Assembly: GCF_054482595.1 (NCBI RefSeq)
Contig: NZ_CM137008.1
DNA: 64,000 nucleotides
Reading direction: 5' to 3' (one strand)
Shown: one piece after another, positions 1 through 23,256 of the stretch
Layout: every line of letters starts with the position of its first letter
Position numbering within the stretch: the stretch's first letter is position 1
Position numbers and translations under genes: made by a program
Notes under the pieces: model-generated
Told to the model about the DNA's origin: nothing
Databases searched by the model: none
The model's input: the letters and a program-made list of their open reading frames with translations, nothing else

Positions 1-533
1 GTTTCCACCGTCACTTCCAGCGGATCGTTAGTTGCAGAAGCCGAAGGCGGTACGATGCGATCAACGGCGGAATCGACAAAGCCAACGTGTTCTTCTACCC
101 ACGCTTTGGCGTCTTCCTGCAGGGCGTTCATCACATGGCCTTTCAGCTGCGTGGTGCCGCGGACCATGTTTTCACAAGCGATGATGTTCAGCGGAGATTC
201 ATTACCTTGTTCTTTACGTTTCACCAGCCCTTTGGCGATAGCCGGAGCAATACGTTCCAGCACTACCGGGCCAACGGCGGTAGTGACTAAATCAACCTGA
301 GCAATGAGATCAACGACATCATCACCAATGCTGCTGACAGCATTGACGCCGGAAACGGTATCTACCTGCTCGGTTTCACCTACCACATGAACCTGATAGC
401 TATGACGGGCATTCAGGGCATCAAGTACCACCTGATTGACATCGGCAAACGTCAGTTGTATACCCGCGTCTGCCAGCAGTTTACCGATAAAGCCACGACC
501 GATATTACCTGCGCCAAAATGTAATGCTTTCAT
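1..533 (-). CDS. mtlD: mannitol-1-phosphate 5-dehydrogenase, 5' part (3' end lies beyond the left edge)
   Basis: Reverse-strand ATG at 531-533 opens [34 protein letters not shown]... (Rossmann GxGxxG). I recognise this as E. coli MtlD. It lies directly downstream of mtlA on the same strand. Confidence 0.9.
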
Positions 534-559
534 AGTATTAACCTTCATCAATGTTTTTA

Positions 560-762
<203 letters not shown>

Positions 763-2676
763 TTACTTATGACCTGCCAGCAGTTCCAGCACTTCATCCA
801 CGCTGGTGGTGTGTGCCAGACGCTCGATGACGGACTCATCATCCAGTGCATTGGTCAGGCTGGTGATAACCTGAATGTGCTCGTTGTTACGGGCAGCAAT
901 ACCAATCACCAGACGGGCAATGTCATCTTCTTCTTCACCGAAGCGCACGCCTTCCGGGTACTGGCAGAACACCACGCCCGTTTTCAGTACGCGATCTTTC
1001 GCTTCAACCGTACCGTGTGGCACCGCGATAGACTCACCCAGATAAGTCGGGGTCAGTTTTTCACGATCCAGCATCGCCTGAACGTATTCCGGCTCAACGT
1101 AACCGCCTTTCACCAGCTGCTCGCCAGCAAAACGAATCGCTTCTTCTTTGGTGGCCGCTTTGCGACCGAGGAAGATGTTCTCCGCGCCCAGTTTGAACAG
1201 GTTAGCACTGGAATCGTCAAAGCTGTCTTTCAGACTGTCTTTCACTTTCACTTCGTTTTCAGTATGGCGCTGGGCAGCAACCAGACGTTCGGTCAGGCTG
1301 GTGTACAGGCCGCTGTCGAGGAAGTTGGTCAGCGAAATATGCTGTGCCTGCGGAACCTGGCGCATAGCGCGTTCGGTCAGGTCACGGTGAGTGATGACGA
1401 GGTCCACATCTGGCGGCAGGTTGTTGATCGCACTGTTAGTGACCGAAATCTGCGACAGACCTGCATCCTGAATTTTCTTACGCAGCACGCCTGCGCCCAT
1501 CGCACTTGAACCCATACCGGCGTCACAGGCAACGATGATTTTACGTACGTGGCTCAGGTCGTTAGTCACATCGCCCGCAGACAGCGGAGATGCACCTTTA
1601 GACTCAGCTTTCATGTCCTGCATACGACGAGTTGCTGCTTCAATATCATCTTCTTCTTTCACTTTGCTGGTTTTCAGCAAAATAGCAGAGACAACAAAGG
1701 AGACAGCCATCGCCGCACACACACCCGCGATGTTAGCGAAATAAGCACCTTTTGGTGTCATCGCCAGTACAGCAAGGATAGAACCCGGAGATGCCGGAGA
1801 AACCAGACCACCGCCCAGGATAGTCAGCGTGAACACGCCAGTCATACCGCCGAGGATAACGGCCAGGATCAGACGCGGATTCATCAACACATACGGGAAG
1901 TAAATTTCGTGGATACCACCCAGGAAGTGGATAATTGCCGCACCGCCCGCAGACTGTTTAGCGCTACCACGACCAAAGAACATGTACGCCAGCAGCACGC
2001 CCATACCCGGACCTGGGTTAGCTTCAATCAGGAAGAATATGGATTTACCCAGTTCATGGGACTGCTGAATACCCAGCGGCGAGAAGATACCGTGGTTAAT
2101 GGCGTTGTTGAGGAACAGGATTTTCGCCGGTTCAACAAAGATAGACGCCAGCGGCAGCATGTCATGGACAACCATGAAGTTAACGCCCGCAGCCAGCATT
2201 TTGGACAGGGCTTCAACAATCGGGCCAATGCCGAGAAATGCCAGAATGGCGAGGATCATCCCGATGATGCCTGCGGAGAAGTTATTCACCAGCATCTCAA
2301 AACCGGATTTGATCTTACCGTCTACCCAGCGGTCGAAGTGCTTAATGCACCAGCCGCCCAGCGGACCTGCAATCATAGAACCGAGGAACATCGGCATGTC
2401 TGCGCCGACGATAACGCCCATGGTGGTGATGGCACCGACTACGCCGCCACGTTCGCCGCCTACCAGCTTACCACCGGTATAACCGATCAGCAGCGGCAGG
2501 AGATAAGTGATCATCGGCCCGACCAGCTTCGCCAGCGTCTCGTTCGGTAACCACCCTGTTGGAATAAATAACGCGGTGATGATACCCCACGCGATAAACG
2601 CGCCGATATTTGGCATCACCATGTTGCTGAGGAAACGACCAAAGCTTTGCACTTTGATCTTAATATCGGATGACAT
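763..2676 (-). CDS. mtlA: PTS mannitol-specific EIICBA component
   Basis: The 637-aa ORF opens [20 protein letters not shown]. Sequence and length match my memory of K-12 MtlA, with polytopic N-terminal, IIB and IIA segments. Confidence 0.95.
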
Positions 2677-2819
2677 AAAAACACCCCTTCTTATGTTTGC
2701 TGTCGCGCAGGCTGGAAGCCCGAGGTTTTTTGTTAATGTGGCGGCAGAGGTAGCCGGACCTTGTAGATACTGCGAAATCTGGCACTGAATCGGTTAACTG
2801 TCCAGTCGACGGCCTTTTG

Positions 2820-3039
2820 TGTGATATCAGTCACATAAATATAGGGGGTAGAGAGGTAATTGACGTGATACTCATCACAAAACGCTTGTGTAAAAAAGCA
2901 ACAAGACGGCGATTTTCGCTAAAAATGGCATTTAAATGTGAGTAGTGTCACATTTTTGTTTTGATGGTTTGTTGAATCTTTGTGATCTGAATCACAAGAT
3001 ATTTTCTTACGGCGTTCACCTGATGTGATCTACAGCATG
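2820..3039 (-). promoter_or_regulatory. mtl operon control region with a cluster of CRP-type sites
   Basis: TGTGA-N6-TCACA matches lie at 2820-2835, 2937-2952 and 2981-2996 (all perfect). Another lies at 2864-2879 (cGTGA-N6-TCACA), and a half-site at 3024-3039. All are upstream of the mtlA start at 2676. The mtl promoter is known to carry multiple CRP sites. Confidence 0.75.
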
Positions 3040-3212
3040 TTATGCCTTCGTCATACAATCGTTATGTAACTAAGCAACTCATCACCTCTAAAAATTATTC
3101 TTTGGTGTTATGGCGAGAATCGCGAACCCGGATTATTGTCAAAATATCAGCCTGACTCCCTTCTGGCTGCCAGCCCAAAAACAACACTGATAAACGTGAA
3201 TCCGAGGCAGAT

Positions 3213-3575
3213 ATGTTTCTAAACTATTTCGCGTTGGGAGTGCTGATCTTCGTCTTTCTGGTGATTTTTTATGGAATCATCGCGATACATGACATCCCTT
3301 ATCTGATTGCCAAAAAGCGCAATCACCCCCATGCCGACGCTATTCATACGGCGGGCTGGGTGAGCCTGTTTACTCTGCATGTTATCTGGCCGTTTCTGTG
3401 GATCTGGGCGACGCTCTATCAACCGGAGCGTGGCTGGGGTATGCAGTCACATGTTGCGTCGCAGGAGAAAGCAACTGACCCGGAAATCGCCTCACTTTCT
3501 GACCGAATTTCCCGGCTGGAGCATCAACTCGCCGCCGAGAAAAAGACTGACTATTCCACGTTCCCGGAGATCTAA
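3213..3575 (+). CDS. yibI: small inner-membrane protein (DUF3302 family), partner of YibH
   Basis: The 120-aa ORF opens [45 protein letters not shown]. It is a paralogue of the yiaW product at 21791 and ends 2 nt before yibH. Confidence 0.85.
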
Positions 3576-3577
3576 TT

Positions 3578-4714
3578 ATGGATCTATTGATTGTTTTAAC
3601 TTACGTGGCGCTGGCGTGGGCGGTCTTTAAAATCTTCCGCATTCCGGTAAATCAGTGGACGCTGGCGACGGCGGCGCTGGGAGGCGTGTTTCTGGTGAGT
3701 GGTTTGATTTTGTTGATGAACTACAACCACCCTTACACTTTTACCGCGCAAAAGGCAGTGATAGCGATCCCTATCACGCCACAGGTGACGGGAATTGTTA
3801 CTGAAGTCACTGACAAGAATAATCAGCTTATTCAAAAGGGCGAGGTGCTTTTTAAGCTCGACCCGGTTCGTTACCAGGCGCGAGTTGACAGACTTCAGGC
3901 TGACCTGATGACGGCGACGCATAATATAAAAACGCTGCGCGCCCAGCTCACTGAAGCGCAGGCCAACACCACCCAGGTTTCAGCGGAGCGCGACCGTCTG
4001 TTTAAAAATTATCAACGTTACCTGAAAGGCAGCCAGGCGGCGGTGAATCCGTTCTCGGAACGTGACATCGACGATGCGCGGCAAAATTTCCTCGCGCAGG
4101 ATGCGTTAGTGAAAGGCTCGGTGGCGGAGCAGGCGCAGATCCAGAGTCAGCTCGACAGTATGGTCAACGGCGAGCAATCGCAGATTGTGAGCTTAAGAGC
4201 GCAACTTACTGAAGCAAAATATAATCTTGAGCAGACTGTCATTCGCGCACCAAGCAATGGCTACGTCACTCAGGTACTGATCCGCCCAGGCACATACGCA
4301 GCTGCCTTGCCGTTGCGTCCGGTGATGGTTTTCATCCCCGAGCAAAAACGGCAAATTGTCGCCCAATTTCGGCAAAACTCGCTGTTACGTCTGAAACCTG
4401 GCGATGATGCGGAAGTGGTGTTTAACGCGCTACCTGGGCAGGTGTTCCACGGCAAACTGACCAGTATTTTACCTGTCGTGCCAGGCGGTTCTTATCAGGC
4501 GCAGGGGGTATTGCAATCATTAACGGTCGTGCCCGGCACGGACGGTGTGCTGGGAACCATTGAACTGGACCCTAACGATGATATCGATGCCTTACCCGAC
4601 GGCATTTACGCCCAGGTGGCAGTTTACTCCGACCATTTCAGCCATGTTTCGGTGATGCGAAAAGTGCTGCTAAGAATGACCAGCTGGATGCATTATCTTT
4701 ATTTGGATCATTGA
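3578..4714 (+). CDS. yibH: HlyD-family membrane-fusion-like protein
   Basis: The ORF is 378 aa, with an N-terminal TM segment, a long coiled-coil-like middle and a shared C-terminus ...[31 protein letters not shown]. It is a clear paralogue of yiaV at 22120. Confidence 0.88.
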
Positions 4715-5173
4715 GGGGGAAGGGGGAGATTATGGAACTTTGCTCCCTGTAAGGACTAATTATTTTTGCATATTATTTCATCGGCTGTGATGATTTTTCG
4801 TTAATATCCATTATGTTAAGAAGTTCGGGATGAGTGTGAACTCATTGGATTTTTTATCCGTCTTGATCTGCCGAAGGATCAGACTATACATTGTCGAGAT
4901 CGCAATGATGATATGAGTTGTTCCTCCTGCGACGGCTCTAATCAAAAAAGAGCAGGAGTGCTTTTCCATCTATTGCGATGATGGCTTTATTATCTGAAGG
5001 ATGACAGTCACATTTAAAAAATATTTAATCTATAGATCACAATGTAGGGTCATGGAATATATGTATACAACTATTTTCTTCTTCACTTTTAATTATCGTG
5101 TTCATTATAAAACCAAGTTAAAAAAACTCCTGGAGAGTGACTTATTAATATATTTTTAAATAAAATTAAGTTA

Positions 5174-5695
5174 TTATTCATCGATGCATTTTATAGAATC
5201 ATCAATGGCCATAATAGTACTATTAACTCTCCACTTTATATTTTTATCATCACTACAAATATTAACTGAATTTATATCAATGATTTTTTTATTCTTATCT
5301 TTTGTTTTATTTACTGTTTCAATGCAATCAGCGGCAAGTTGGAGTGGATTTAGATTTTTCAGATATGGTCTTATGATCTTTCCCTTACTTAATAAATAGC
5401 ATGTATAGGATTCGGAAAGTCCAGCATCTATTTTGTACCTCATTATATTAGATAAGGATGTGAGAAATTCCTTGTTATCATTCGCAGCCATATATGCCAG
5501 TCCGAGTTCAGCCTCTGCGGCCTTACAGGCAAAATAGCTAAGTGAACACGCTTTTCGTCCCTCTTTAGTACTGGCTGATATTAGTGCCCATAATATTGCT
5601 TTGTCTGCCAAATCTAACTCTCTCTGAAATTGTCTTGCAGTAACTGCACTCGCAGAAATAGAGAAAAAAAATACAATTGTTAATAACTTTGCCAT
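5174..5695 (-). CDS. putative secreted (periplasmic) immunity protein for the downstream-most orphan Rhs toxin
   Basis: The 173-aa ORF starts 5 nt after the orphan toxin stop (5701-5703). Its N-terminus MAKLLTIVFFFSISASA/VTA looks like a Sec signal peptide with an AxA site. It is AT-rich like the adjacent toxin tail. I recognise no catalytic motif. Confidence 0.6.
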   Translation of the reverse strand: MAKLLTIVFFFSISASAVTARQFQRELDLADKAILWALISASTKEGRKACSLSYFACKAAEAELGLAYMAANDNKEFLTSLSNIMRYKIDAGLSESYTCYLLSKGKIIRPYLKNLNPLQLAADCIETVNKTKDKNKKIIDINSVNICSDDKNIKWRVNSTIMAIDDSIKCIDE

Positions 5696-5700
5696 ATTTT

Positions 5701-6594
5701 TTAGTCCGTAACTGTTAATGTGCTATCTGGCTCTGAAAATATTAACTCATTTAATTTTTGCATGTCATTAGATGAACCAGTTATACAACCCTCGGAACAG
5801 AATCGAGGTCCTAAAGACGGACCGAAAGCGTTTAAACAACTATGTGTTAAAAATCCATCACGATTATATGTTTCTGTATTTGCTGACGGTACTAAACGTA
5901 TACCATTAGGTTTTCTATTGGTTGCTCCAGGACCATTAACATTCCAGCTCCATACCCCTTGAGGTATTGGACCTCTATTTTGTAAGTGTGTACAACCAGG
6001 ATTATTTTTACATTGCATATTATTACCATTATTACCAGAGGCGACAGGAATAGTAAGCACATCATAAGAGTTATCATCATTTTGCGTATCTGAAACGCAT
6101 GAAAGCATACTTAAAGTTATGCTGTATAAACAGGTCGCTAATCCCAACGGGTCAATATCAGTTATCGGATTCAACGGATACTGATAAAAATTCCATCCCC
6201 CTTTCAGCCCAATCGGATCCTGAGTGATATATCGCCCCTGCAGCGGGTCATAATAGCGGTGGCGGTTGTAATACAGGCCGGACTCCTCATCATACTGCTG
6301 CCCCGGCAGGCGGATAAGCTGCTGCAGCTGATGCGGGTTCTCTTCATTCAGCAGGTTGCCCCACTCATCGTATTCTGCGCACCATTCTGTAGCACCTTCC
6401 GTGCTGATAAGCGCCAGCGGCAGGCCGCGATGGTCGCAGTGGTACAGGTGGATTTTTCGCGCCGGCGTGTACACCGGGTCCATCTGGTTTTGCATCTGCG
6501 CCACCGTCAGGCCGCACGATGCCAGCCAGCGGCGGCTTTCCTCACTCACCCGGTCAGCCAGGATTTCACTTTCCAGCCGGTCGAGCATCTGCAC
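5701..6594 (-). CDS. orphan Rhs C-terminal fragment: about 150 aa of Rhs core, DPLGL, then a 145-aa toxin tail with an L,D-transpeptidase-fold (Tlde1/DUF2778-like) signature
   Basis: Residues (M)[23 protein letters not shown]...[27 protein letters not shown] repeat the rhsA core 3' end. DPLGL lies at 6139-6153. The tail (5704-6138) contains GPIPQGVW and FLTHSC-x13-SEGCI. There is no ATG with a Shine-Dalgarno at the 5' end; the frame opens just after a TGA and the first starts are GTG 6594 and ATG 6588. It occupies the position of K-12 yibJ. Confidence 0.75.
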
Positions 6595-6620
6595 CGTGCC
6601 GGCGGGAATCCCCCACTGTG
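6154..6620 (-). repeat. third copy of the rhsA core 3' segment (about 0.45 kb)
   Basis: It is near-identical at nucleotide level to 10319-10790 and 8448-8915. For example, ggatcctgagtgatata.cgcccctgcagcgggtcataatagcggtggcggttgtaatacaggcc is present in all three. Confidence 0.9.
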
Positions 6621-6635
6621 CATAGGCAACTCACG

Positions 6636-7478
6636 CTATGAACGCTTCAGCTTATCAATAGCGGAAGTTATAATTTCATTGTCATCAAACTTGTACAACA
6701 TAGTATCTAAAACAGGAAGTAGCGTTTTATCACCTAATTCACCCGCAGCTTCAATGATATCATCATAAACAGTATTTTTTTTTAACTCATCGCATAAAAC
6801 AGATAAAACCCTTTTATCTTTTCTGTAGGAAAGTCAGATTATTGCTTCAATACGGACTTCCTCATTTTTATCCTGAAGCATCTCCACAAAATAATCCCTA
6901 ATATCACTATTATCATATTTATTGATATTTATTGCAAATGCGGCCCAGTTTCTGACATCTCCATTTGGATCTTTTAACAGATTAATCAATAGTGGAATTG
7001 TTGCTTTATCATTGATAACAGAAATAGCAAATGCTGTAGCACGTCTGACATTAGTCGATTTATCAAAAGCAGTAATTTGAGATTGTTCTACTATTTTAGG
7101 TGAATAATTTGGGTTTTTCTTGCATCGCTGAGCCGTTGACTCGATTGCCGTAGCTCGAACGCAAGCGCTCTTATCATTCAATGCCATATTGTTCAAAATA
7201 TTAAAAACATTATCTTCGCATTTTTTGCAAATTTTTATTTGCCCGAGTATAAATGCTCCGATATCTCTACGGATATAATTTTTATCAGAGCAGAACTCAA
7301 TTGCCAATCTAACAGCGTCTTGCCCACCTCTTAACTGTAATACTCTGGCAGATGAAATCCTTTTCAAGGAATTGTGATCATCAAGTAAGCGAAATAATTC
7401 ATCATCATTTAGTTTCTTACATTGATTATATAAACCATACTCTTTACTTGCCTTTCTTTTCTGGTATGTATTTGACAT
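6636..7478 (-). pseudogene. yibA: HEAT-repeat protein YibA (K-12 RhsA-associated immunity-type gene) interrupted by an in-frame TGA
   Basis: MSNTYQKRKASKEYGLYNQCKKLNDDELFRLLDDHNSLKR... matches my memory of K-12 YibA (280 aa). The frame reads ...GAA GCA ATA ATC TGA CTT TCC TAC AGA AAA GAT, with TGA at 6834-6836. It continues in the same frame to TAG at 6636-6638, encoding ...LSYRKDKRVLSVLCDELKKNTVYDDIIEAAGELGDKTLLPVLDTMLYKFDDNEIITSAIDKLKRS. The total is 281 codons, the K-12 length. Confidence 0.85.
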
Positions 7479-7498
7479 TGCAGGAACCTCCACAAAGG

Positions 7499-7540
7499 CT
7501 ATCTTTTTTTATCGTTTGACTGTCTGGAGTCCTCCACCTA
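7499..7540 (-). other. relic of the 3' end of a K-12-type rhsA toxin tail, still 20 nt upstream of yibA
   Basis: The reverse strand reads TAG GTG GAG GAC TCC AGA CAG TCA AAC GAT AAA AAA AGA TAG, encoding ...SRQSNDKKR*. I recall this as the C-terminus of K-12 RhsA. The 20-nt spacer to the yibA ATG matches the K-12 arrangement as I remember it. Confidence 0.6.
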
Positions 7541-7582
7541 CTCTGCCATCAGCGCACACGATGTTTGATTATCCTTACATAC

Positions 7583-7966
7583 TTATTTTCCGTGGCCAAA
7601 ATTCAGAATTCTCCCATCATTTTTGCCTATTTCTATAATAAAAACCCCACCAGCAATTTGGTCTGAGTGAATGGTACCTTCAACAACCCAACTTGTTGTT
7701 AACTCAGTGATTTCGTATGGTTTTTCTTCTTCTGCGGCATCCTGTCCATAACGATTCTTAACATATATCTCAGCTAATTCCAATGCTATAGCTTTATTTT
7801 TAACCAAATTTCTAACGGTATATTTACCTTCACTTTCATACTTGCGCATTATTTTAATATTATTATTACACTGCGCCCATGTGTTGTATGTAAAAACAAA
7901 CAAAGATACAATGACACATTTCCTAAACAATATTTTTTTACATATTACCATGAACTCTGCAGACAT
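7583..7966 (-). CDS. YbbC/YhhH-type (NTF2-fold) Rhs immunity protein with probable signal peptide
   Basis: The 127-aa ORF contains ...[42 protein letters not shown]...[22 protein letters not shown]. This closely resembles K-12 YbbC/YhhH, the genes immediately 3' of rhsD and rhsB. The hydrophobic N-terminus is [24 protein letters not shown]. It overlaps the upstream toxin ORF by 29 nt, so the true start is uncertain (7966 or 7951). Confidence 0.75.
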
Positions 7967-9407
7967 TAGGTAATCCTTTTCCGTTTGTTATTTCCTTCCC
8001 GTGGTTATCTATTGCTTTAAAATTACCACTGGGCGTACCTAAATAAAATGACTTGATATTGTTATCTTTACTTTTAACTATTTTCTCATCTTTACCTGAA
8101 AATATTTCGTCCCAATATTCTCCATGACTATCTGCACCATGAGTATGATAAGCTGATACTTTCTCAGTACCATTAGGGCAAGGGCTATTGAATGGATATG
8201 ATCCTTTTCTTTCTCCTCGGTTAGGTGCTGTTGAGAAATATCTGCCACTATTATCCTTACATATTAAACCAGCGAACTCTTTATCTTCGCAAATAGATTG
8301 GCTATTTATTTTATTTAAGGCGTCATATGCGGTGCTATCTATAGAATCAAATTTATCTGGACCTATCATAGCGGATAGTGTGCCGCAAAGACCATTAGTA
8401 CATGCCCCCGATTTTGCATCCTCCCACATAGATAAACCCAGGGGGTCGATGTCTGATATCGGATTCAATTGATATCCATACAGGTTCCATCCCCCCTTCA
8501 GCCCAATCGGATCCTGAGTGATATACCTCCCCTGCAGCGGGTCATAATAGCGGTGGCGGTTGTAATACAGGCCGGACTCCTCATCATACTGCTGACCCGG
8601 CAGGCGGATGAGCTGCTGCAGCTGGTGCGGGTTCTCTTCATTCAGCAGGTTGCCCCATTCATCGTATTCTGCGCACCATTCTGTAGCCCCTTCCGTGCTG
8701 ATAAGCGCCAGCGGCAGGCCGCGATGGTCGCAGTGGTACAGGTGGATTTTTCGCGCCGGCGTGTACACCGGGTCCATCTGGTTTTGCATCTGCTCCACCG
8801 TCAGGCCGCACGATGCCAGCCAGCGGCGGCTTTCCTCACTCACCCGGTCAGCCAGGATTTCACTTTCCAGCCGGTCGAGCATCTGCACCAGCACCGGCGG
8901 GAACACCACACTGCCACCGTCTTCGCCGCCGGACTGCTGAAGGGCATCCGCCAGGCTGCGGCGCTGCGTTTTCGCCAGCTCACCGGTGGCAGTTTCGACC
9001 CTGATGAGTGGCGTGAAGCTCCCCGGCTGATAAATCGTCTGGATGCGGCTCCTGTCGTTCTGTATCGTGGTCAGCCGGTCGCCGTCCCAGCCGTACCAGG
9101 TCACTTGCGGTTTCCGTGACAGCGACATCCAGCCCGTCAGGTCCCGTTCACGCCGCCACACCCGTTTTGCCACCCTGCGGCCCAGCGGGTCGTAAAGATA
9201 GCGACTTTCGACCAGCGGCTCTGCATATTGTGTCCGCGTGTAGTGCACCAGCCGGTGCTGACTGTCGTAATGGTACCGGTGGGTGCGCTCATCATCCGTG
9301 CGGATAACCCCTTCCGGGATGAGGTCGGTTTTCTCCGTCAGCCTGCCGTGACGGTCATACCGGTAAAGATAGTGCGCGTCACGGGCGATACGGTTATCCG
9401 GCCACAT
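7938..9407 (-). CDS. orphan Rhs C-terminal fragment: about 325 aa of Rhs core, DPLGL, then a 164-aa RhsD/RhsB-type tail (DUF4329-like)
   Basis: [29 protein letters not shown]... duplicates the rhsA core. DPLGL lies at 8433-8447. The tail [17 protein letters not shown]...[15 protein letters not shown]...[23 protein letters not shown] resembles the K-12 RhsD C-terminus as I recall it. The first ATG is an internal core Met with no Shine-Dalgarno, so the fragment is probably silent unless recombined. Confidence 0.8.
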
Positions 9408-9497
9408 GCTGAGGGCGCTGTCCGGGTGCAGCTCCGGGTCGGGCAGGCGGTTACCTGCCGGGTCTGTGGCATACGGGATATCAATGCCCAGGTTACA
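8448..9497 (-). repeat. second copy of the rhsA core 3' segment (about 1.0 kb)
   Basis: It aligns with 10319-11367 with only scattered substitutions. Protein-level differences include RHGRL/RYGRL, EGVIRT/EGGIRT, ELAKTQ/ELARTQ and ATEWC/ATAWC. Similarity decays at [10 protein letters not shown] versus [10 protein letters not shown]. Confidence 0.9.
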
Positions 9498-9524
9498 TAT
9501 AATAATAAGAGCAATTAACTTAAT

Positions 9525-9851
9525 TTATTTGTTTATAATGCGCTTACTTAATACAAACCATTGAATATACCCTCCTGACAGAAAATAAAGCCATATTATT
9601 ATCGCCATAATATACTTACTATCAATCCTTACGCCAATAATGTCTGATACAGTCCCTATAAATATTAGAGCAATAAAGAATACTATGCCTGTTGGAAAAC
9701 ATATTACCATCATTCCATAAGACATGAGACTAATTAACTCGCTCACATCACGAGTGGAGTCTAATAGTGAAAGTCTATGCATGGAAAAGAATAGTATTAA
9801 AAGCGATAAAGCCAGCCATATAGCTCTGAATAAAAAAATAATATATTTCAT
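9525..9851 (-). CDS. small polytopic membrane protein, presumed cognate immunity (RhsI) for the rhsA C-terminal toxin
   Basis: The 108-aa ORF has three hydrophobic segments (IIFLFRAIWLALSLLILFF, MSYGMMVICFPTGIVFFIALIFIG, IMAIIIWLYFLSGGYIQWFVL). Its ATG (9849-9851) shares one nt with the rhsA TAA (9851-9853), reading TAATG. It is AT-rich. Confidence 0.7.
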   Translation of the reverse strand: MKYIIFLFRAIWLALSLLILFFSMHRLSLLDSTRDVSELISLMSYGMMVICFPTGIVFFIALIFIGTVSDIIGVRIDSKYIMAIIIWLYFLSGGYIQWFVLSKRIINK

Positions 9852-12800
9852 TACATCACTCCGGTGAATACAAATCTAATAAAACGTCCAATGTTATTTC
9901 CGGAGCACTTCATCTTACATGTTTCTAAAGAATCATTAGACCAGTCTTGGCAGTTTTTAAATAGCCCTAAATTTATAGGTGTGAATATATCAGGCAATAC
10001 AGAATAACGCGGCCTTACCTCTTTAAACTTCCCTTTTAAACAGTTCTCCACACAACTATTATCGGTTTCAACGAGGTCACAACGGCCAGCAGCTTCTTTT
10101 GTATCATTACTTGCTTTACCTGGCCCCCATAGACCATCTCCTTTTGATTCTCCCCGTTGGTCTTGGCCACCACAAGTATAGTCCCCTTTACCATCTGGGA
10201 CACAAAGATATTGATGATAGAACGGATTCCCCCATATATCTGGACCGCTTCTTTCACCAGTTCCGCCCATTGAATGCAGTGGCTTAATGCATTTTAGTGT
10301 TTCTAATCCTAATGGATCTATATTTGAGATCGGATTCAACGGATACTGATAAAAATTCCATCCCCCCTTCAGCCCAATCGGATCCTGAGTGATATACCGC
10401 CCCTGCAGCGGGTCATAATAGCGGTGGCGGTTGTAATACAGGCCGGACTCCTCATCATACTGCTGCCCCGGCAGCCGGATAAGCTGCTGCAGCTGATGCG
10501 GGTTCTCTTCATTCAGCAGGTTGCCCCATTCATCATATTCTGCGCACCACGCTGTTGCCCCTTCCGTGCTGATGAGCGCCAGCGGCAGGCCGCGATGGTC
10601 GCAGTGGTACAGGTGGATTTTTCGCGCCGGCGTGTACACCGGGTCCATCTGGTTTTGCATCTGCTCCACGGTCAGGCCGCACGATGCCAGCCAGCGGCGG
10701 CTTTCCTCACTCACCCGGTCAGCCAGGATTTCACTTTCCAGCCGGTCGAGCATCTGCACCAGCACCGGCGGGAACACCACACTGCCACCGTCTTCGCCGC
10801 CGGACTGCTGAAGCGCATCCGCCAGGCTGCGGCGCTGCGTTCTGGCCAGTTCACCGGTGGCAGTTTCAACTCTGATGAGTGGTGTGAAGCTCCCCGGCTG
10901 ATAAATCGTCTGGATGCGGCTCCTGTCGTTCTGTATCGTGGTCAGCCGGTCGCCGTCCCAGCCGTACCAGGTCACTTGCGGTTTCCGTGACAGCGACATC
11001 CAGCCCGTCAGGTCCCGTTCACGTCGCCATACCCGTTTTGCCACCCTGCGGCCCAGCGGGTCGTAAAGATAGCGACTTTCGACCAGCGGCTCTGCATATT
11101 GTGTCCGCGTGTAGTGCACCAGCCGGTGCTGACTGTCGTAATGGTACCGGTGGGTGCGCTCATCATCCGTACGGATACCCCCTTCCGGGATGAGGTCGGT
11201 TTTCTCCGTCAGCCTGCCGTAACGGTCATACCGGTAAAGATAGTGCGCGTCACGGGCGATACGGTTATCCGGCCACATGCTGAGGGTGCTGTCCGGGTGC
11301 AGCTCCGGGTCGGGCAGGCGGTTGCCCGCCGGGTCCGTGGCATACGGGATGCGGATATCCAGATTCGCTGCGGTGGTGTGAACGCCGGTCAGCCTGCCGG
11401 TGGTGCTGTAGCTGTAACTCCGGGTCTGGCGCGGGCTGCTGATGCGGATGAGTTCGCCGTTGTCGTTCCAGGTGTAATCGCGGTCATACTGCAGGCTGTT
11501 CAGGTGCTGACGCTGTAACTGCCCGGCAGGGGTGTAAGCGGTGGTGAGTTCATAACGACCGAAGCTGCGCAGCGTTTCCCGGTGCAGGCGGTCGCGGGTG
11601 AAATCCACCAGCGGTGTGTCGCCGAGCTTCATGCCTGCCAGCCAGCCGCTGCCGTAGGTCAGCCATTCCACGGCGGGCAGGCTGTCCGGTATACAGCGGT
11701 TCGCCAGTCCCTGCGCGTTGTACGCATGTCTGGTCTCATGCTGCCAGAGCAGTGCTTCCGTCTGCGGGTGATGCACCGTCTGGCGCTCACCGGTCAGGCG
11801 GCCTTTCTCATCATACCTGTAATGCACCGCTACCCGGTGCCCTTCGCTGATATGGCTGATGTCTGTCAGCCAGCCACGTTCGTCATACCGCCACCGCTCT
11901 GCGGTTTCACCCTTCACGGTGCGGTGCGTGAGGCGGTCTGCTTCGTCATAGTGCCAGTGGGTGACCAGACCCTCATCCTCGCTGCGGATAAGTTTGCCGG
12001 TCAGGTCGTGGTGATAACGCTGTGTGCGGCCGTCAAAGCCGGTTTCCTGTATCAGCCGGTCAAGTACATCGTAACGGAAGGTGGTGTGGCTGCCGTTTTC
12101 ACTGGTCAGGCGGATGACCCGTCCGGCAGCATCGTATTCCATACTGCGCGTCAGCCCGCCCTGCGTGGTACGGACGGCCTTTCCCCACGCATCGTACTGT
12201 GTCCCGTTTCTGCTGCCGTCCGGGGCAATGACGGCGGTCAGGTCACCGGCGATGTTGTATTCATACCGCGTTTCATGGCCCTGCGTGTCTTTCACGGCAA
12301 TTAACTGTCCACGGCTGTCGTATGCGCGGTACTGGCTCAGCCCTTCCTCGCGGTGCACCGCCGTCATCTGCCCGAAGCGGTCATGGTCATAACGGGTCTG
12401 GTAGCCGGAACAGTCGGTGAAGCTCAGCAACTGGCCGTAACGGCTCCACGTCATGGTTTTCCGGCTGCCGGTGGCATCGTCCGTTGCGCAGGGGAGGTCA
12501 CTGTGTGGATTATCATAACGGTAGCGGGTGATATCGCCGTCAGGGGCGGTTTCCTGAATCAGACGGCCGGATTCATCATATTCCCGGCGCAATTCCAGCC
12601 CGTCAGGCCCGGTGGCTGACGTTAACTGGTTGTGGTGGTTATAGTAAAACGCCGATGCCCTGCCATCCGGCGTGGTTATGCGCGTGATGAGGCCCGTCAC
12701 CACATCCGGGCTGTACTCTGTTGTCCTGCCTGCGGCATCCGTCTGTGCCCTGAGCCTGCCCACGGCGTCAAACTGACTCTGCGTGACGCTGCCGTCCGCG

Positions 12801-14035
12801 TGTTCCTTTTTCACCACCCGCTTCAGCCCGGCTTCGCCCTGCGTGTGCAGCACTTCACGGCGGTCCAGGCTGTCGGTGATGGTGATGCGGTCTTTCTCAT
12901 ACTGATACGTGTAGCTTAAGCCTGCCGGGTTTAGCTGTTCTGTCACCCGCCCGTCGCTGTCGTAACGGTAACGGATTTCCGGCCGGCCCGTGTGACGGTG
13001 CGCCACCATCCGGCCCCGGTATTTATCATCGTAAGTAAAGCTGCGCACCTGTGTATTGCTGCGGTCATACACTGCCGCCAGTTCGCCGCGCGGCGTCCAG
13101 CCATAGCGCACCAGCGGCGCGGCAGGTAAATTCTCCGGGTATTCCGGGTCGTGCGTCAGCCACACGGCAGACAGACGGATGCCGTTGTCCCGGCCATATT
13201 CGGTGTAACCCGGCAGGGTATCAGGAAAAGCGGACGGTTCCGTCCCGCCGGAAATGGCCTGCTGCCGGGCTTCTTCTGCCTGCTGCGCCTGCGTGGTCAG
13301 TACCAGCCGGAAGTGACGCCCGGCACCATCCGTCACGCCGGTGATTTCGCCGCTGAATTCACCGGCGGCTTCGCGGTGGAACGTCTGTGTGCGCCCGAAG
13401 CGGTCCACCAGCCCGGTCAGTACCCGGTACGGCGGCAGCGGCGCAGGCAGCACCTCATCCGCTTCCGGCACCCGCTCACACCACCACCACGGCCCCTGCG
13501 GACTGTTTGTCGCCAGATAACGATGCGGACTTAAGCGGAGTTCTTCCGGCAGCGCCTGCCAGAGTGCGGCCAGCCGGTGACCTTCATCCAGTTTCGCCAC
13601 GCCGCCGCGCACCAGCCACAGTGACTCGCTGCGGCTGTAACCGTCCTCACCGGGAAACAGGTGCTCAAAATACAGGCTTCTGCCGCCGTTATCACTGAGT
13701 ATCAGTGTGTTATCGCGCAGCTGTAAGCGGATATCCGCAGGCATTTTCCAGCCGGGGCCGAGGCTCCCCACCGGCGCGGGCGTTTTTGTCCGGTAACTGC
13801 TGTAGGTGCGGGAGAGGATGAACGGCAGCGGGGCGGGCAGGGCGATGTCGGTTTCACCGGGAAGGACCTTTGCACCGAGCAGGGGATTGACCGGATGGCC
13901 GGACGTCACTCCGCCGGGGCACCCCGAACAGGCCACACCGGTTGGGGCACCGATGCGCACCCCGGCTGAACCCTGAACAATGCTACCGCCATACTGCGTC
14001 ATGTCGCCCTGACGCGCCGCCGGTTTTCCGCTCAT
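9851..14035 (-). CDS. rhsA: Rhs family polymorphic toxin (PAAR-like N-terminus, YD-repeat shell, DPLGL, variable 150-aa Cys-rich C-terminal domain)
   Basis: The ORF is 1394 aa. The N-terminus is [29 protein letters not shown] (literal PAAR). Many YD-type repeats (xYxYDxxGRL) follow, then the core end ...[40 protein letters not shown] (DPLGL at 10304-10318) and the tail at 9854-10303. It is called rhsA from its position next to yibF and yibA, as in K-12. Confidence 0.93.
10319..11367 (-). repeat. rhsA core 3' segment, the master copy of the three direct repeats
   Basis: See 8448-9497 and 6154-6620. All three copies are in the same (minus-strand) orientation. Confidence 0.9.
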
Positions 14036-14263
14036 CTGCTCATCCTTGTTTTATCGAGTTATTTGTCTGCTTCCAGGCAAAACCCTACAGATTTATAAGA
14101 AAGCCTTAAGTGAGATATCCATCAGATAGAAACAATTAGGAAAATATTTATATCACCATGATAAATATGTGATTTATTTGGAAGTAACAAACCATCAACA
14201 TTTTCTGCCCTTTTTCCCATCACCAGGCCATACTGATATTTTTCCTCGCACAAAGGACTCGGC

Positions 14264-14872
14264 ATGAAACTCGTCGGTAGCTACACCAGCCCGTTTGTAC
14301 GCAAACTTTCTATTCTGTTGTTAGAAAAGGGCATAACTTTCGAATTTATTAATGAACTGCCCTATAACGCGGACAACGGCGTGGCGCAATTTAACCCGTT
14401 AGGAAAAGTGCCGGTGCTGGTGACCGAAGAGGGCGAATGCTGGTTTGATTCGCCGATCATCGCTGAATATATTGAATTAATGAATGTCGCTCCGGCGATG
14501 TTACCGCGCGATCCGCTGGAGTCGTTGCGGGTGCGCAAAATTGAGGCGCTGGCGGATGGCATTATGGATGCCGGGCTGGTATCGGTGCGTGAACAGGCGC
14601 GTCCAGCGGCGCAGCAGTCTGAAGATGAATTGTTACGCCAGCGGGAGAAAATCAACCGTAGTCTGGATGTGCTGGAAGGATATCTGGTCGATGGCACACT
14701 TAAAACCGATACGGTCAATCTGGCGACTATCGCCATTGCCTGTGCCGTCGGATATCTCAATTTCCGCCGCGTTGCGCCAGGCTGGTGTGTCGACCGCCCA
14801 CACTTAGTCAAACTGGTCGAAAACCTGTTTAGCCGCGAAAGTTTTGCTCGCACCGAACCGCCAAAGGCTTGA
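14264..14872 (+). CDS. yibF: glutathione S-transferase family protein
   Basis: The 202-aa ORF opens [31 protein letters not shown] (GST N-terminal thioredoxin-like motif). Length and context match K-12 YibF. Confidence 0.9.
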
Positions 14873-14969
14873 TGCGCGATATGTCCTCCTGACCCATCTC
14901 ACGTTACAATCCGTGGTTATGTTAAACGCCCTTCTCCGTGTGAGAGGGCCTTGATCAGCCAGGTTTCCT

Positions 14970-16361
14970 ATGACAACCGAAACGCGTTCCCTCTATAGTC
15001 AACTTCCGGCTATTGATCGCTTATTGCGCGATAGCTCCTTCCTTTCTTTGCGTGATACTTATGGTCACACCCGCGTGGTGGAATTGTTGCGTCAGATGCT
15101 TGACGAAGCGCGAGAAGTGATTCGTGACAGCCAGATGCTGCCCGCGTGGTGTGAAAACTGGGCGCAAGAAGTCGATGCCCGGTTGACGAAAGAGGCGCAG
15201 AGCGCGCTGCGTCCGGTGATCAACCTGACGGGAACCGTGCTGCATACCAATCTTGGGCGAGCTTTACAGGCGGAAGCTGCGGTGGAAGCCGTTGCGCAGG
15301 CTATGCGTTCGCCAGTGACCCTCGAGTACGATTTGGACGACGCCGGACGCGGACATCGCGATCGGGCGCTGGCGCAGCTGCTGTGCCGCATTACCGGCGC
15401 GGAAGATGCCTGTATCGTTAATAACAATGCGGCGGCGGTGTTATTGATGTTGGCGGCCACTGCCAGCGGGAAAGAGGTGGTGGTTTCTCGCGGCGAACTG
15501 GTGGAGATTGGCGGCGCGTTTCGTATTCCCGATGTTATGCGTCAGGCAGGCTGCACCCTACACGAAGTAGGGACCACCAACCGCACGCACGCGAATGATT
15601 ATCGTCAGGCGGTGAATGAAAATACCGCACTGTTGATGAAAGTACATACCAGTAACTACAGCATTCAGGGGTTCACCAAAGCGATAGACGAAGCTGAACT
15701 GGTGGCGCTCGGCAAAGAGCTGGATGTTCCCGTAGTGACTGATTTAGGCAGTGGCTCGCTGGTCGATCTTAGCCAGTACGGTTTGCCGAAAGAGCCAATG
15801 CCGCAGGAGTTGATTGCGGCGGGCGTCAGTCTGGTGAGTTTCTCCGGCGACAAGTTGTTAGGCGGGCCGCAGGCAGGAATTATCGTTGGTAAAAAAGAGA
15901 TGATCGCCCGCCTGCAAAGCCACCCGCTGAAACGTGCATTACGCGCGGATAAAATGACCCTCGCGGCGTTGGAAGCCACGTTGCGTCTTTATTTACACCC
16001 TGAAGCTCTGAGTGAAAAATTACCGACCCTGCGCCTGCTTACCCGCAGCGCAGAGGTCATTCAAATCCAGGCACAACGTTTACAGGCTCCCCTTGCCGCA
16101 CATTACGGCGCGGAGTTTGCGGTACAGGTTATGCCATGTCTTTCGCAGATTGGCAGTGGTTCGCTGCCGGTTGATCGCCTGCCGAGCGCGGCATTAACGT
16201 TTACACCCCATGATGGACGCGGTAGCCACCTTGAGTCATTAGCCGCCCGCTGGCGTGAATTGCCAGTGCCGGTGATTGGTCGTATTTATGACGGACGATT
16301 GTGGCTGGATTTACGCTGCCTTGAAGATGAGCAACGGTTTTTGGAGATGTTGTTGAAATGA
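14970..16361 (+). CDS. selA: L-seryl-tRNA(Sec) selenium transferase
   Basis: The ORF is 463 aa and contains ...[18 protein letters not shown] (PLP-Lys region). It overlaps selB by ATGA at 16358-16361. Confidence 0.95.
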
Positions 16362-22119: not shown

Positions 22120-23256
22120 ATGGATTTACTGATTATTTTGACCTATGTGGCTTTTGCATGGGCAATGTTTAAGATCTTCAAAATTCCCGTAAATAAATGG
22201 ACCATTCCCACAGCGGCCTTGGGTGGAATATTTATTGTCAGCGGTCTAATTCTGTTAATGAACTATAACCATCCGTATACCTTTAAAGCGCAAAAAGCGG
22301 TTATTTCTATTCCTGTTGTCCCACAGGTGACTGGTGTGGTGATTGAAGTGACGGATAAGAAAAATACGCTGATTAAAAAAGGTGAAGTGCTATTTCGACT
22401 GGACCCGACGCGTTATCAGGCGCGGGTGGATCGGCTGATGGCGGATATCGTTACCGCAGAACATAAACAGCGGGCGTTGGGCGCAGAGTTAGATGAGATG
22501 GTGGCGAATACTCAGCAGGCAAAGGCCACGCGGGATAAATTCGCTAAAGAGTATCAGCGTTACGCACGCGGCAGCCAGGCGAAAGTAAACCCGTTTTCAG
22601 AACGCGATATCGATGTGGCGCGGCAAAATTATCTGGCGCAGGAAGCCTCCGTAAAGTCATCGGCAGCGGAACAAAAACAGATCCAGAGCCAGCTGGATAG
22701 CCTGGTGTTGGGTGAACATTCTCAAATCGCCAGCCTGAAAGCGCAGCTCGCGGAAGCAAAATATAACCTTGAGCAGACGATAGTGCGTGCGCCGAGCGAT
22801 GGTTATGTGACCCAGGTACTGATTCGTCCGGGTACCTATGCCGCGTCGCTGCCGCTACGTCCGGTGATGGTGTTTATACCCGATCAGAAACGACAAATCG
22901 TGGCGCAGTTCCGTCAGAACTCCTTGCTGCGCCTGGCTCCCGGCGATGATGCGGAAGTGGTATTTAACGCTCTGCCAGGCAAAGTGTTCAGCGGTAAGCT
23001 GGCAGCCATTAGTCCAGCTGTTCCCGGCGGAGCTTATCAGTCGACCGGCACCTTACAGACGTTAAACACAGCGCCGGGTTCAGATGGCGTTATCGCGACC
23101 ATTGAACTGAATGAGCACACTGATTTGAGCGCTTTACCAGACGGTATTTACGCCCAGGTGGCGGTCTACTCTGATCATTTCAGCCATGTCTCGGTGATGC
23201 GCAAAGTGTTATTACGTATGACCAGCTGGGTGCATTACCTTTATCTCGATCATTAA
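22120..23256 (+). CDS. yiaV: HlyD-family membrane-fusion-like protein
   Basis: The ORF is 378 aa and a paralogue of yibH, with the same length and C-terminus. Confidence 0.9.

Follow-up and report, generated by a model that had tools for sequence, protein, structure and literature searches.

What does an orphan rhs module in the rhsA-type locus of an Escherichia coli chromosome encode, where would its product act, and could it be brought into use? We analyzed one such module, denoted orphan module 1, within a stretch of 64,000 nucleotides of contig NZ_CM137008.1 (RefSeq assembly GCF_054482595.1; hereinafter, the window), where all the relevant genes of the rhsA-type locus are on the minus strand. 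On balance, the best explanation appears to be that the module is an orphan RhsB/YhhH cassette, activated by recombination, that encodes a predicted periplasmic JAB-type zinc hydrolase, a reading that we consider fairly probable.

The object itself is ordinary: the same toxin tip and immunity gene are found in K-12 and in about half of the complete E. coli genomes. RhsB and its relative RhsD are Rhs elements that have been known since the 1980s. What seems to be of some value as an addition is the evidence for periplasmic action of this toxin family, which contradicts the RNase label currently in circulation.

An apparent spare copy of the RhsB/YhhH pair

The toxin open reading frame (ORF) of the module consists of 489 codons (7938-9407, minus strand). 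The original prediction, made from the sequence alone, described an orphan rhs module with a DUF4329-like tail of 164 amino acids, with several cysteines, that is overlapped by 29 nucleotides by an immunity ORF. All these features were recovered. Translation places 164 residues after the DPLGL sequence, with six cysteines at positions 11, 16, 48, 58, 85 and 158 (here and below, residues are numbered within the tip); the two ORFs share nucleotides 7938-7966; and the tip matches the Pfam family DUF4329 (PF14220) with a score of 132.9 bits (cut-off 28.6; E 6.7e-39), in agreement with the annotation of the ORF as a partial rhsB by the NCBI Prokaryotic Genome Annotation Pipeline (PGAP) and with its identity to the RhsB C-terminus. 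The immunity protein matches the Pfam family Imm-NTF2-2 (PF15631) over amino acids 60-127, with a score of 92.1 bits (cut-off 26; E 2.5e-26).

The prediction assigned the pair jointly to the RhsD/RhsB and YbbC/YhhH types, and the comparison with K-12 separates the two. The tip is identical to the K-12 RhsB tip in 163 of the 164 residues (99.4%), and the immunity protein to K-12 YhhH in 126 of 127 (99.2%), so that the RhsB/YhhH part of the assignment stands, whereas the RhsD tip (53% amino acid identity) and YbbC (55%) are paralogues. At the DNA level, 2080 bp align to the K-12 rhsB locus with 98.9% identity, a match that runs past yhhH (180 bp) into the yibA-derived 'yrhC' fragment. The K-12 pair (b3482/b3483) shows the same 29-nucleotide overlap. 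In K-12, however, the tip ends a full-length, 1411-aa RhsB in the nik-side locus, whereas here it is preceded only by the last 1.06 kb of the core and lies, in the interval bounded by yibF and mtlA, downstream of a complete Rhs that ends in an RhsC-type tip. The K-12 RhsD/YbbC pair resembles the orphan in its Pfam families, the E/HTH/SxxD residues, the hydrophobic leader of the immunity protein and the cysteines, all six of which are kept between the RhsB and RhsD tips; the identity levels given above are those of paralogous specificities, and YbbC has a lipobox-like LFAC where YhhH has TWA/QC (the slash marks the predicted cleavage site).

Judging by these comparisons, the module is an RhsB/YhhH allele, apparently a silent spare copy. 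The allele of the tip is that of K-12 RhsB, and the description of the family, along with its JAB signature, dates from 2012, so that in this respect the original prediction is a rediscovery. Of the 5426 complete E. coli genomes, 2683 contain the RhsB tip combined with yhhH, mostly in one copy and mostly at the end of a full-length rhsB. Across the module, strain APEC37 shows 100% identity, and PGAP annotates nucleotides 7938-9494 in that genome as 'rhsB, partial, missing N-terminus', a pseudogene. A HMMER scan of 1.84 billion representative sequences yielded 753 homologues of the tip; neither the tip nor the immunity protein nor a 40-sequence profile gave a usable match in sequence searches of the PDB.

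A predicted, divergent JAB-type metal site in the toxin tip

Zhang et al. (2012) described the Tox-JAB-2 family, which overlaps DUF4329, as an Rhs-borne domain with the signature E, H[ST]H, S, D and with Imm-NTF2-2 as its immunity family (PMC3482391). The complete signature is present in the tip. Among 134 diverse homologues, the best-conserved positions are E52, H96, T97, H98, S112 and D115 (96-99%), along with S46, G55 and F111, and in an alignment of 40 sequences the only invariant columns are S46, E52, H96, T97, H98, S112 and D115. An AlphaFold2 (AF2) model of the tip, built from the 40-sequence alignment, has a mean predicted local distance difference test score (pLDDT) of 86.6 and a predicted template modeling score (pTM) of 0.79. 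In this model, the HTH triplet closes a strand and SxxD opens the helix that follows, which is the arrangement in JAMM enzymes. Thus, from the invariance of these residues and their placement in the model, the tip is a divergent member of the JAB-fold proteins in which the metal-site signature is intact; its modeled fold is JAB/MPN-like, a deaminase-like fold. A match to Rpn11 has already been obtained with an I-TASSER model of RhsB from enterohemorrhagic E. coli (PMC7216683).

The spacing of the site is unusual. The original prediction placed E52, H96-T97-H98 and S112-G-K-D115 exactly where translation puts them and noted that the 13 residues between H98 and S112 depart from the JAMM pattern. 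Indeed, the tip does not match the canonical motif E-x(n)-H-x-H-x(7)-S-x-x-D. This is a property of the family rather than of this copy: the spacer between HxH and S varies from 10 to 29 residues, with a mode of 12, and the canonical 7 was never seen, although the residues of the pattern are precisely the family invariants. The JAMM/MPN+ isopeptidases (AfJAMM, PfJAMM1, Rpn11, AMSH, BRCC36 and Cap3) and RadC share with the tip the order E...HxH...SxxD and its placement at the strand end and helix start. The tip differs from them in the longer spacer, in that it does not match the Pfam families of these enzymes, and in that it is toxin-borne, contains conserved cysteine pairs and is paired with a predicted exported inhibitor. 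The residues that form the tunnel for the ubiquitin tail are not conserved in the toxin clades, and all characterized JAB enzymes are said to be intracellular (both PMC3482391).

If this assignment is correct, the tip would be a JAB-type zinc-dependent hydrolase in which H96, H98 and D115 hold the metal, whereas E52 and S112 assist catalysis.

An immunity family with predicted export signals and the proposed site of toxin action

The AF2 model of YhhH (pLDDT 84) consists of one helix and a four-stranded sheet and resembles cystatin, PepSY, metalloprotease propeptides and NTF2/VirB8 domains; at such a size, NTF2-like and related small folds are inseparable. We searched with a profile derived from the mature immunity domain only, and obtained 29 non-redundant full-length matches, 27 of which have a hydrophobic N-terminal leader; the remaining two look like start-site miscalls. 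In the family alignment, an unconserved hydrophobic leader precedes the conserved domain in each of the 28 rows. The Imm-NTF2-2 family, as far as can be predicted, nearly always carries an export signal, in line with the YbbC/YhhH-type NTF2 immunity protein with a signal-like N-terminus that had been proposed at the outset. YhhH itself was considered as a lipoprotein and rejected as such, the residue at position -1 being Gln (WAQC); YbbC (LFAC) and distant members of the family (ISGC, VAAC) do have lipoboxes.

Zhang et al. list Imm-NTF2-2 as restricted to E. coli (PMC3482391). We found an Imm-NTF2-2 gene directly downstream of the DUF4329 toxin gene here and in 7 of the 9 other DUF4329 contexts examined, namely, in Ralstonia solanacearum, Rahnella, an Omnitrophica genome and several metagenome contigs; therefore, the pairing is not confined to E. 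coli. The N-termini of the immunity proteins in these contexts are classical signal peptides (in Ralstonia, ...FVSA/QE), lipoboxes (ISGC, VAAC) or signal anchors. The Omnitrophica genome also contains a main and orphan pair of this toxin family. The Tox-JAB-2/Imm-NTF2-2 pair described previously shares with the orphan the domain, the signature, the Rhs context and the immunity family (PMC3482391); in addition to that description, the pairing extends beyond E. coli and the immunity family is nearly always predicted to be exported, which argues for a periplasmic target rather than for a nuclease. In the sister family Tox-JAB-1, the immunity protein is a lipoprotein (PMC3482391).

A further line of evidence comes from the cysteines of the tip. 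Across the family, Cys58 and Cys85 occur together in 55 proteins and are both absent in 61, whereas Cys85 alone is present in 17 proteins and Cys58 alone in one. Because the immunity family is exported by prediction, the pairing extends beyond E. coli, and Cys58 and Cys85 co-vary, the toxin most likely meets its inhibitor, and hence its substrate, in the periplasm. With such a meeting place, an envelope bond of the peptide or isopeptide type fits better than nucleic acid. The target would be located in the periplasm or cell envelope and would be an extended peptide or an isopeptide-type bond; candidates are the peptidoglycan stem peptide, the peptidoglycan cross-link and the Lpp-peptidoglycan link, the choice among which is a guess. 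The exported YhhH, a small cystatin/PepSY/NTF2-like protein, would block the toxin in the periplasm. Given the exported immunity family and the co-varying cysteine pairs, killing by the tip is expected from the periplasm only and is expected to depend on E52, H96, H98 and D115.

Several observations weigh against a periplasmic JAB-type hydrolase encoded in a functional cassette. A Foldseek comparison of the tip model with the PDB produced no significant match; the best one, with E 0.02, is an MPN protein, and MPN proteins top the list. With the Pfam families JAB, Prok-JAB and RadC, there was no match to the tip at E values up to 10, and DUF4329 was the only family detected, so that of the two profile searches, DUF4329 and JAB, suggested in the original prediction, the first succeeded and the second did not. 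The signal-peptide calls were made with hand-made hydrophobicity rules of low specificity: the loose rule is passed by 27 of the 29 family members (93%) versus 22 of the 50 control ORFs from the window (44%; p 9e-6), and the stricter rule by 22 of 29 (76%) versus 17 of 50 (34%; p 4e-4). Because the window is rich in envelope genes and the rules are unspecific, the export argument rests mainly on the family alignment. In one VgrG/PAAR/DUF4123 cluster, a stand-alone DUF4329 effector precedes a leaderless 109-aa ORF without a Pfam match (positions 3001-3862 of that locus); unless this ORF is not the immunity gene, it breaks the rule of exported immunity. The co-occurrence of Cys58 and Cys85 could reflect shared ancestry instead of a disulfide. 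In a promoter and terminator scan of nucleotides 7300-10000, sites around the orphan were no more common than in shuffled sequence; we claim no promoter, and expression of yhhH in this genome is therefore an assumption. Finally, the published prediction for DUF4329/Tox-JAB-2 is a nuclease or RNase.

This prediction amounts to an alternative under which the tip is a nuclease or RNase that acts in the cytoplasm, and the N-terminus of the immunity protein is irrelevant to the site of neutralization. Zhang et al. drew on an analogy to RadC to suggest a possible nuclease activity for toxin JAB domains (PMC3482391), with the reasoning given by Iyer et al. 2011 (PMC3239186), and later genome surveys class the DUF4329 domain as an RNase, citing Ma et al. 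2017; the effector followed by the leaderless ORF also is in line with a cytoplasmic toxin. The papers that use the RNase label, however, report no assay on the DUF4329 domain, and the label is itself an inference. According to a review, only Rhs-CT1, CT3 and CT5 were experimentally tested in Ma et al. 2017 (PMC6730261), and a preprint from 2024 describes both the activity and the substrate of Rhs-Tox-JAB-2 as unknown. Our literature search on DUF4329/Tox-JAB-2 found no report of a measured activity, and the statement in the original prediction that the biochemical activity of this family is not established is consistent with both the review and the preprint. Furthermore, cytoplasm-acting toxins normally have cytoplasmic immunity proteins, whereas nearly all Imm-NTF2-2 proteins carry predicted export signals; the periplasm contains no nucleic acid substrate; and the conserved cysteine pairs suit an oxidizing compartment. 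We regard a cytoplasmic nuclease as rather doubtful.

The periplasmic hydrolase reading can be extended from this module to both K-12 tips, and here we proceed tentatively. It is possible that the RhsB/RhsD-type tips are not RNases and instead are disulfide-stabilized JAB-fold zinc hydrolases that act on periplasmic envelope bonds and are countered by an exported inhibitor. If true, the "RNase" label that has spread through surveys of type VI secretion system effectors would be wrong for the DUF4329 family, a JAB/MPN enzyme would be known for the first time to have an extracytoplasmic role, and a mechanism would be assigned to two classical K-12 Rhs elements.

The core repeat and the potential for toxin switching

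The module displays the hallmarks of an orphan cassette: a truncated 3' part of an rhs core, 1.9 kb downstream of an rhs gene of full length and in the same orientation, the PxxxxDPxGL motif, an AT-rich tip and a small immunity ORF. The PxxxxDPxGL boundary separates a core of about 63% GC from a tip of about 33% GC. The retained core, 1.06 kb in length, is the last part of the rhs core, so that the N-terminal PAAR region is missing, as is most of the shell; positions 937-1261 of the NCBIfam RHS_core profile align to amino acids 1-325 of the ORF, and TIGR03696 (Rhs_assc_core) covers amino acids 248-325. The homology to the core continues in frame to about 9494, beyond the ATG at 9407, and within this in-frame extension upstream of the ATG, we detected no start codon and no Shine-Dalgarno sequence. 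With neither a delivery domain nor evident translation signals in the fragment, the orphan toxin is expected to be silent.

How could a silent tip be brought into use? The original prediction held that the module retains a full kilobase of core homology, and this is the case: of the 1.06 kb of core, 1037 bp align without gaps to the resident rhs gene at 96.1% identity. The longest identical run within the repeat is 143 bp. The second, shorter orphan in the locus has only about 481 bp in common with the main rhs gene; in the repeat search, the three core ends are in register. In Salmonella, an orphan toxin was activated via 522 bp at 95% identity (PMC3967940). By analogy, it is plausible that the 1037-bp repeat suffices for main/orphan toxin switching by recombination. 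The related suggestion that this module is the best switching substrate in the locus is plausible as well, given the repeat lengths and the Salmonella precedent. Recombination between the two core copies would fuse the RhsB tip to the full-length Rhs and thereby make the toxin active, with the RhsC-type tip and ybfB swapped for the RhsB tip and yhhH; the fused full-length Rhs would then be delivered by the type VI secretion system. The 1-kb repeat would offer a convenient natural system to watch Rhs toxin switching in E. coli.

The closest parallel is the S. Typhimurium rhs locus (Koskiniemi et al. 2014, PMC3967940), in which a full-length rhs gene is likewise followed by a truncated fragment with its own tip and immunity gene and a near-identical core repeat. 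With 1037 bp at 96%, the present repeat is about twice the length of the Salmonella one (522 bp at 95%), the toxin families differ, and switching in the present strain is a prediction. In Salmonella, promoters within the core can also drive expression of the orphan tip and immunity gene (PMC7043789). Core-internal promoters of this kind could account for expression of yhhH, although our own scan gave no support above chance. If expressed alone, yhhH would protect the cell against RhsB-armed neighbors; the tip is present in about half of the complete E. coli genomes.

Could the orphan instead be a decaying recombination remnant with no present function beyond, at most, that of the immunity gene? 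PGAP calls the ORF a pseudogene, the core fragment is preceded by no start codon, Shine-Dalgarno sequence or above-chance promoter, the neighboring yibA has an internal stop, and the exact arrangement of an RhsC-type tip, ybfB, an orphan core and an RhsB tip is rare, being found in 25 of the 5426 complete E. coli genomes. The reading frame of 1.5 kb, however, is intact. Compared to K-12 rhsB, the 489 codons of the toxin ORF differ by 13 synonymous and 3 non-synonymous substitutions, which argues for an ORF that is intact rather than decayed, and a single residue differs from K-12 in each of the tip and the immunity protein. Moreover, such orphan cassettes are in use in Salmonella (PMC3967940) and are expressible from core promoters as well (PMC7043789). 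A mere remnant thus appears unlikely. It is highly improbable that the orphan is an internally expressed toxin-antitoxin pair that acts on the physiology of the producer itself rather than in competition: core-internal promoters drive the tip and immunity gene in S. Typhimurium, similar promoter sequences have been reported in E. coli (PMC7043789), and the orphan retains the same conserved core region upstream of PxxxxDPxGL, but an exported immunity protein would be unable to neutralize a toxin made in the cytoplasm, the tip would be inert there if it needs disulfides or a periplasmic substrate, and no promoter signal above chance is present.

Genomic context of the module

The features of the module and its neighborhood are listed in the table.

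Table. Coordinates and properties of the features of orphan module 1 and the surrounding rhsA-type locus (positions in the window).
Feature	Position	Strand	Remarks
rhsA-type locus, E. coli chromosome	1-16000		between mtlA/yibI/yibH and yibF/selA
Resident full-length rhs gene	9851-14035	-	1394 aa; tip and three-transmembrane (3-TM) partner annotated RhsC/YbfB in identical genomes
Partner copy of the core repeat, inside full-length rhs	10314..11350	-	1037-bp ungapped match to 9479-8443
Orphan module 1 (RhsB-type tip and yhhH)	7583-9494	-
5'-truncated rhs core fragment (orphan)	8433..9494	-	longest ORF from ATG at 9407; RHS_core match; PGAP partial rhsB
Direct repeat, putative recombination substrate (orphan copy)	8443..9479	-	1037 bp, 96.1% identity, ungapped
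PxxxxDPxGL demarcation, end of core	8433..8462	-	read from translation
RhsB-type toxin tip, 164 aa and stop codon	7938..8432	-	163/164 identical to K-12 RhsB tip; AF2 pLDDT 86.6
DUF4329/Tox-JAB-2 domain	7986..8336	-	ORF aa 358-474
Glu52 codon, predicted catalytic glutamate	8277..8279	-	99% in 134 homologues; invariant in 40-sequence alignment
His96-Thr97-His98 codons, predicted zinc ligands	8139..8147	-	99%, 96%, 99% in 134 homologues; end of model strand 90-97
Ser112-Gly-Lys-Asp115 codons (SxxD)	8088..8099	-	S and D 97% each; start of model helix 113-120
Shine-Dalgarno-like AAGGA, 7 nt upstream of yhhH ATG	7974..7978	-	read from sequence
yhhH immunity gene, 127 aa	7583..7966	-	126/127 identical to K-12 YhhH; Pfam Imm-NTF2-2
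Predicted YhhH export signal, aa 1-32	7871..7966	-	KK..RK n-region, hydrophobic core, TWA/QC; read from sequence
Mature Imm-NTF2-2 domain, aa 60-127	7586..7789	-
yibA-like HEAT gene, directly after yhhH	6636-7493	-	PGAP: internal stop, pseudogene
Second, shorter rhs orphan	5701-6594	-	weak Tlde1-domain match (E 3.5e-7)
Imm57 gene, partner of second orphan	5174-5695	-

The full-length Rhs of the locus (window 9420-14035, minus strand) carries an RhsC-type tip and is accompanied by YbfB. The junction between ybfB and the orphan core is the same as that in the common rhsC locus, which is present in 2659 genomes. On the other side of the module, the K-12 'yrhC' pseudogene downstream of yhhH (K-12 locus 5888-6234) is the same 5' fragment of yibA, with 98.2% identity over 569 bp; therefore, the block of the RhsB tip, yhhH and the yibA fragment moved between rhs loci as a unit. 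The yibA-like HEAT pseudogene (6636-7493) is not preceded by an RhsA-type tip. Scans with the PADLOC defense models gave no match, nor did a search of nucleotides 4700-14300 against Rfam.

The Imm57 partner of the second orphan has a signal-peptide-like start (MAKLLTIVFFFSISASAVTA). Together with YbfB (3-TM) and the predicted exported YhhH, all three immunity genes of the locus look membrane-bound or periplasmic. Farther along the window, a second yibH-like ORF of the HlyD family is present at 22120-23256 on the plus strand, with a start close to that of yibH (3578-4714), as seen in the list of control ORFs.

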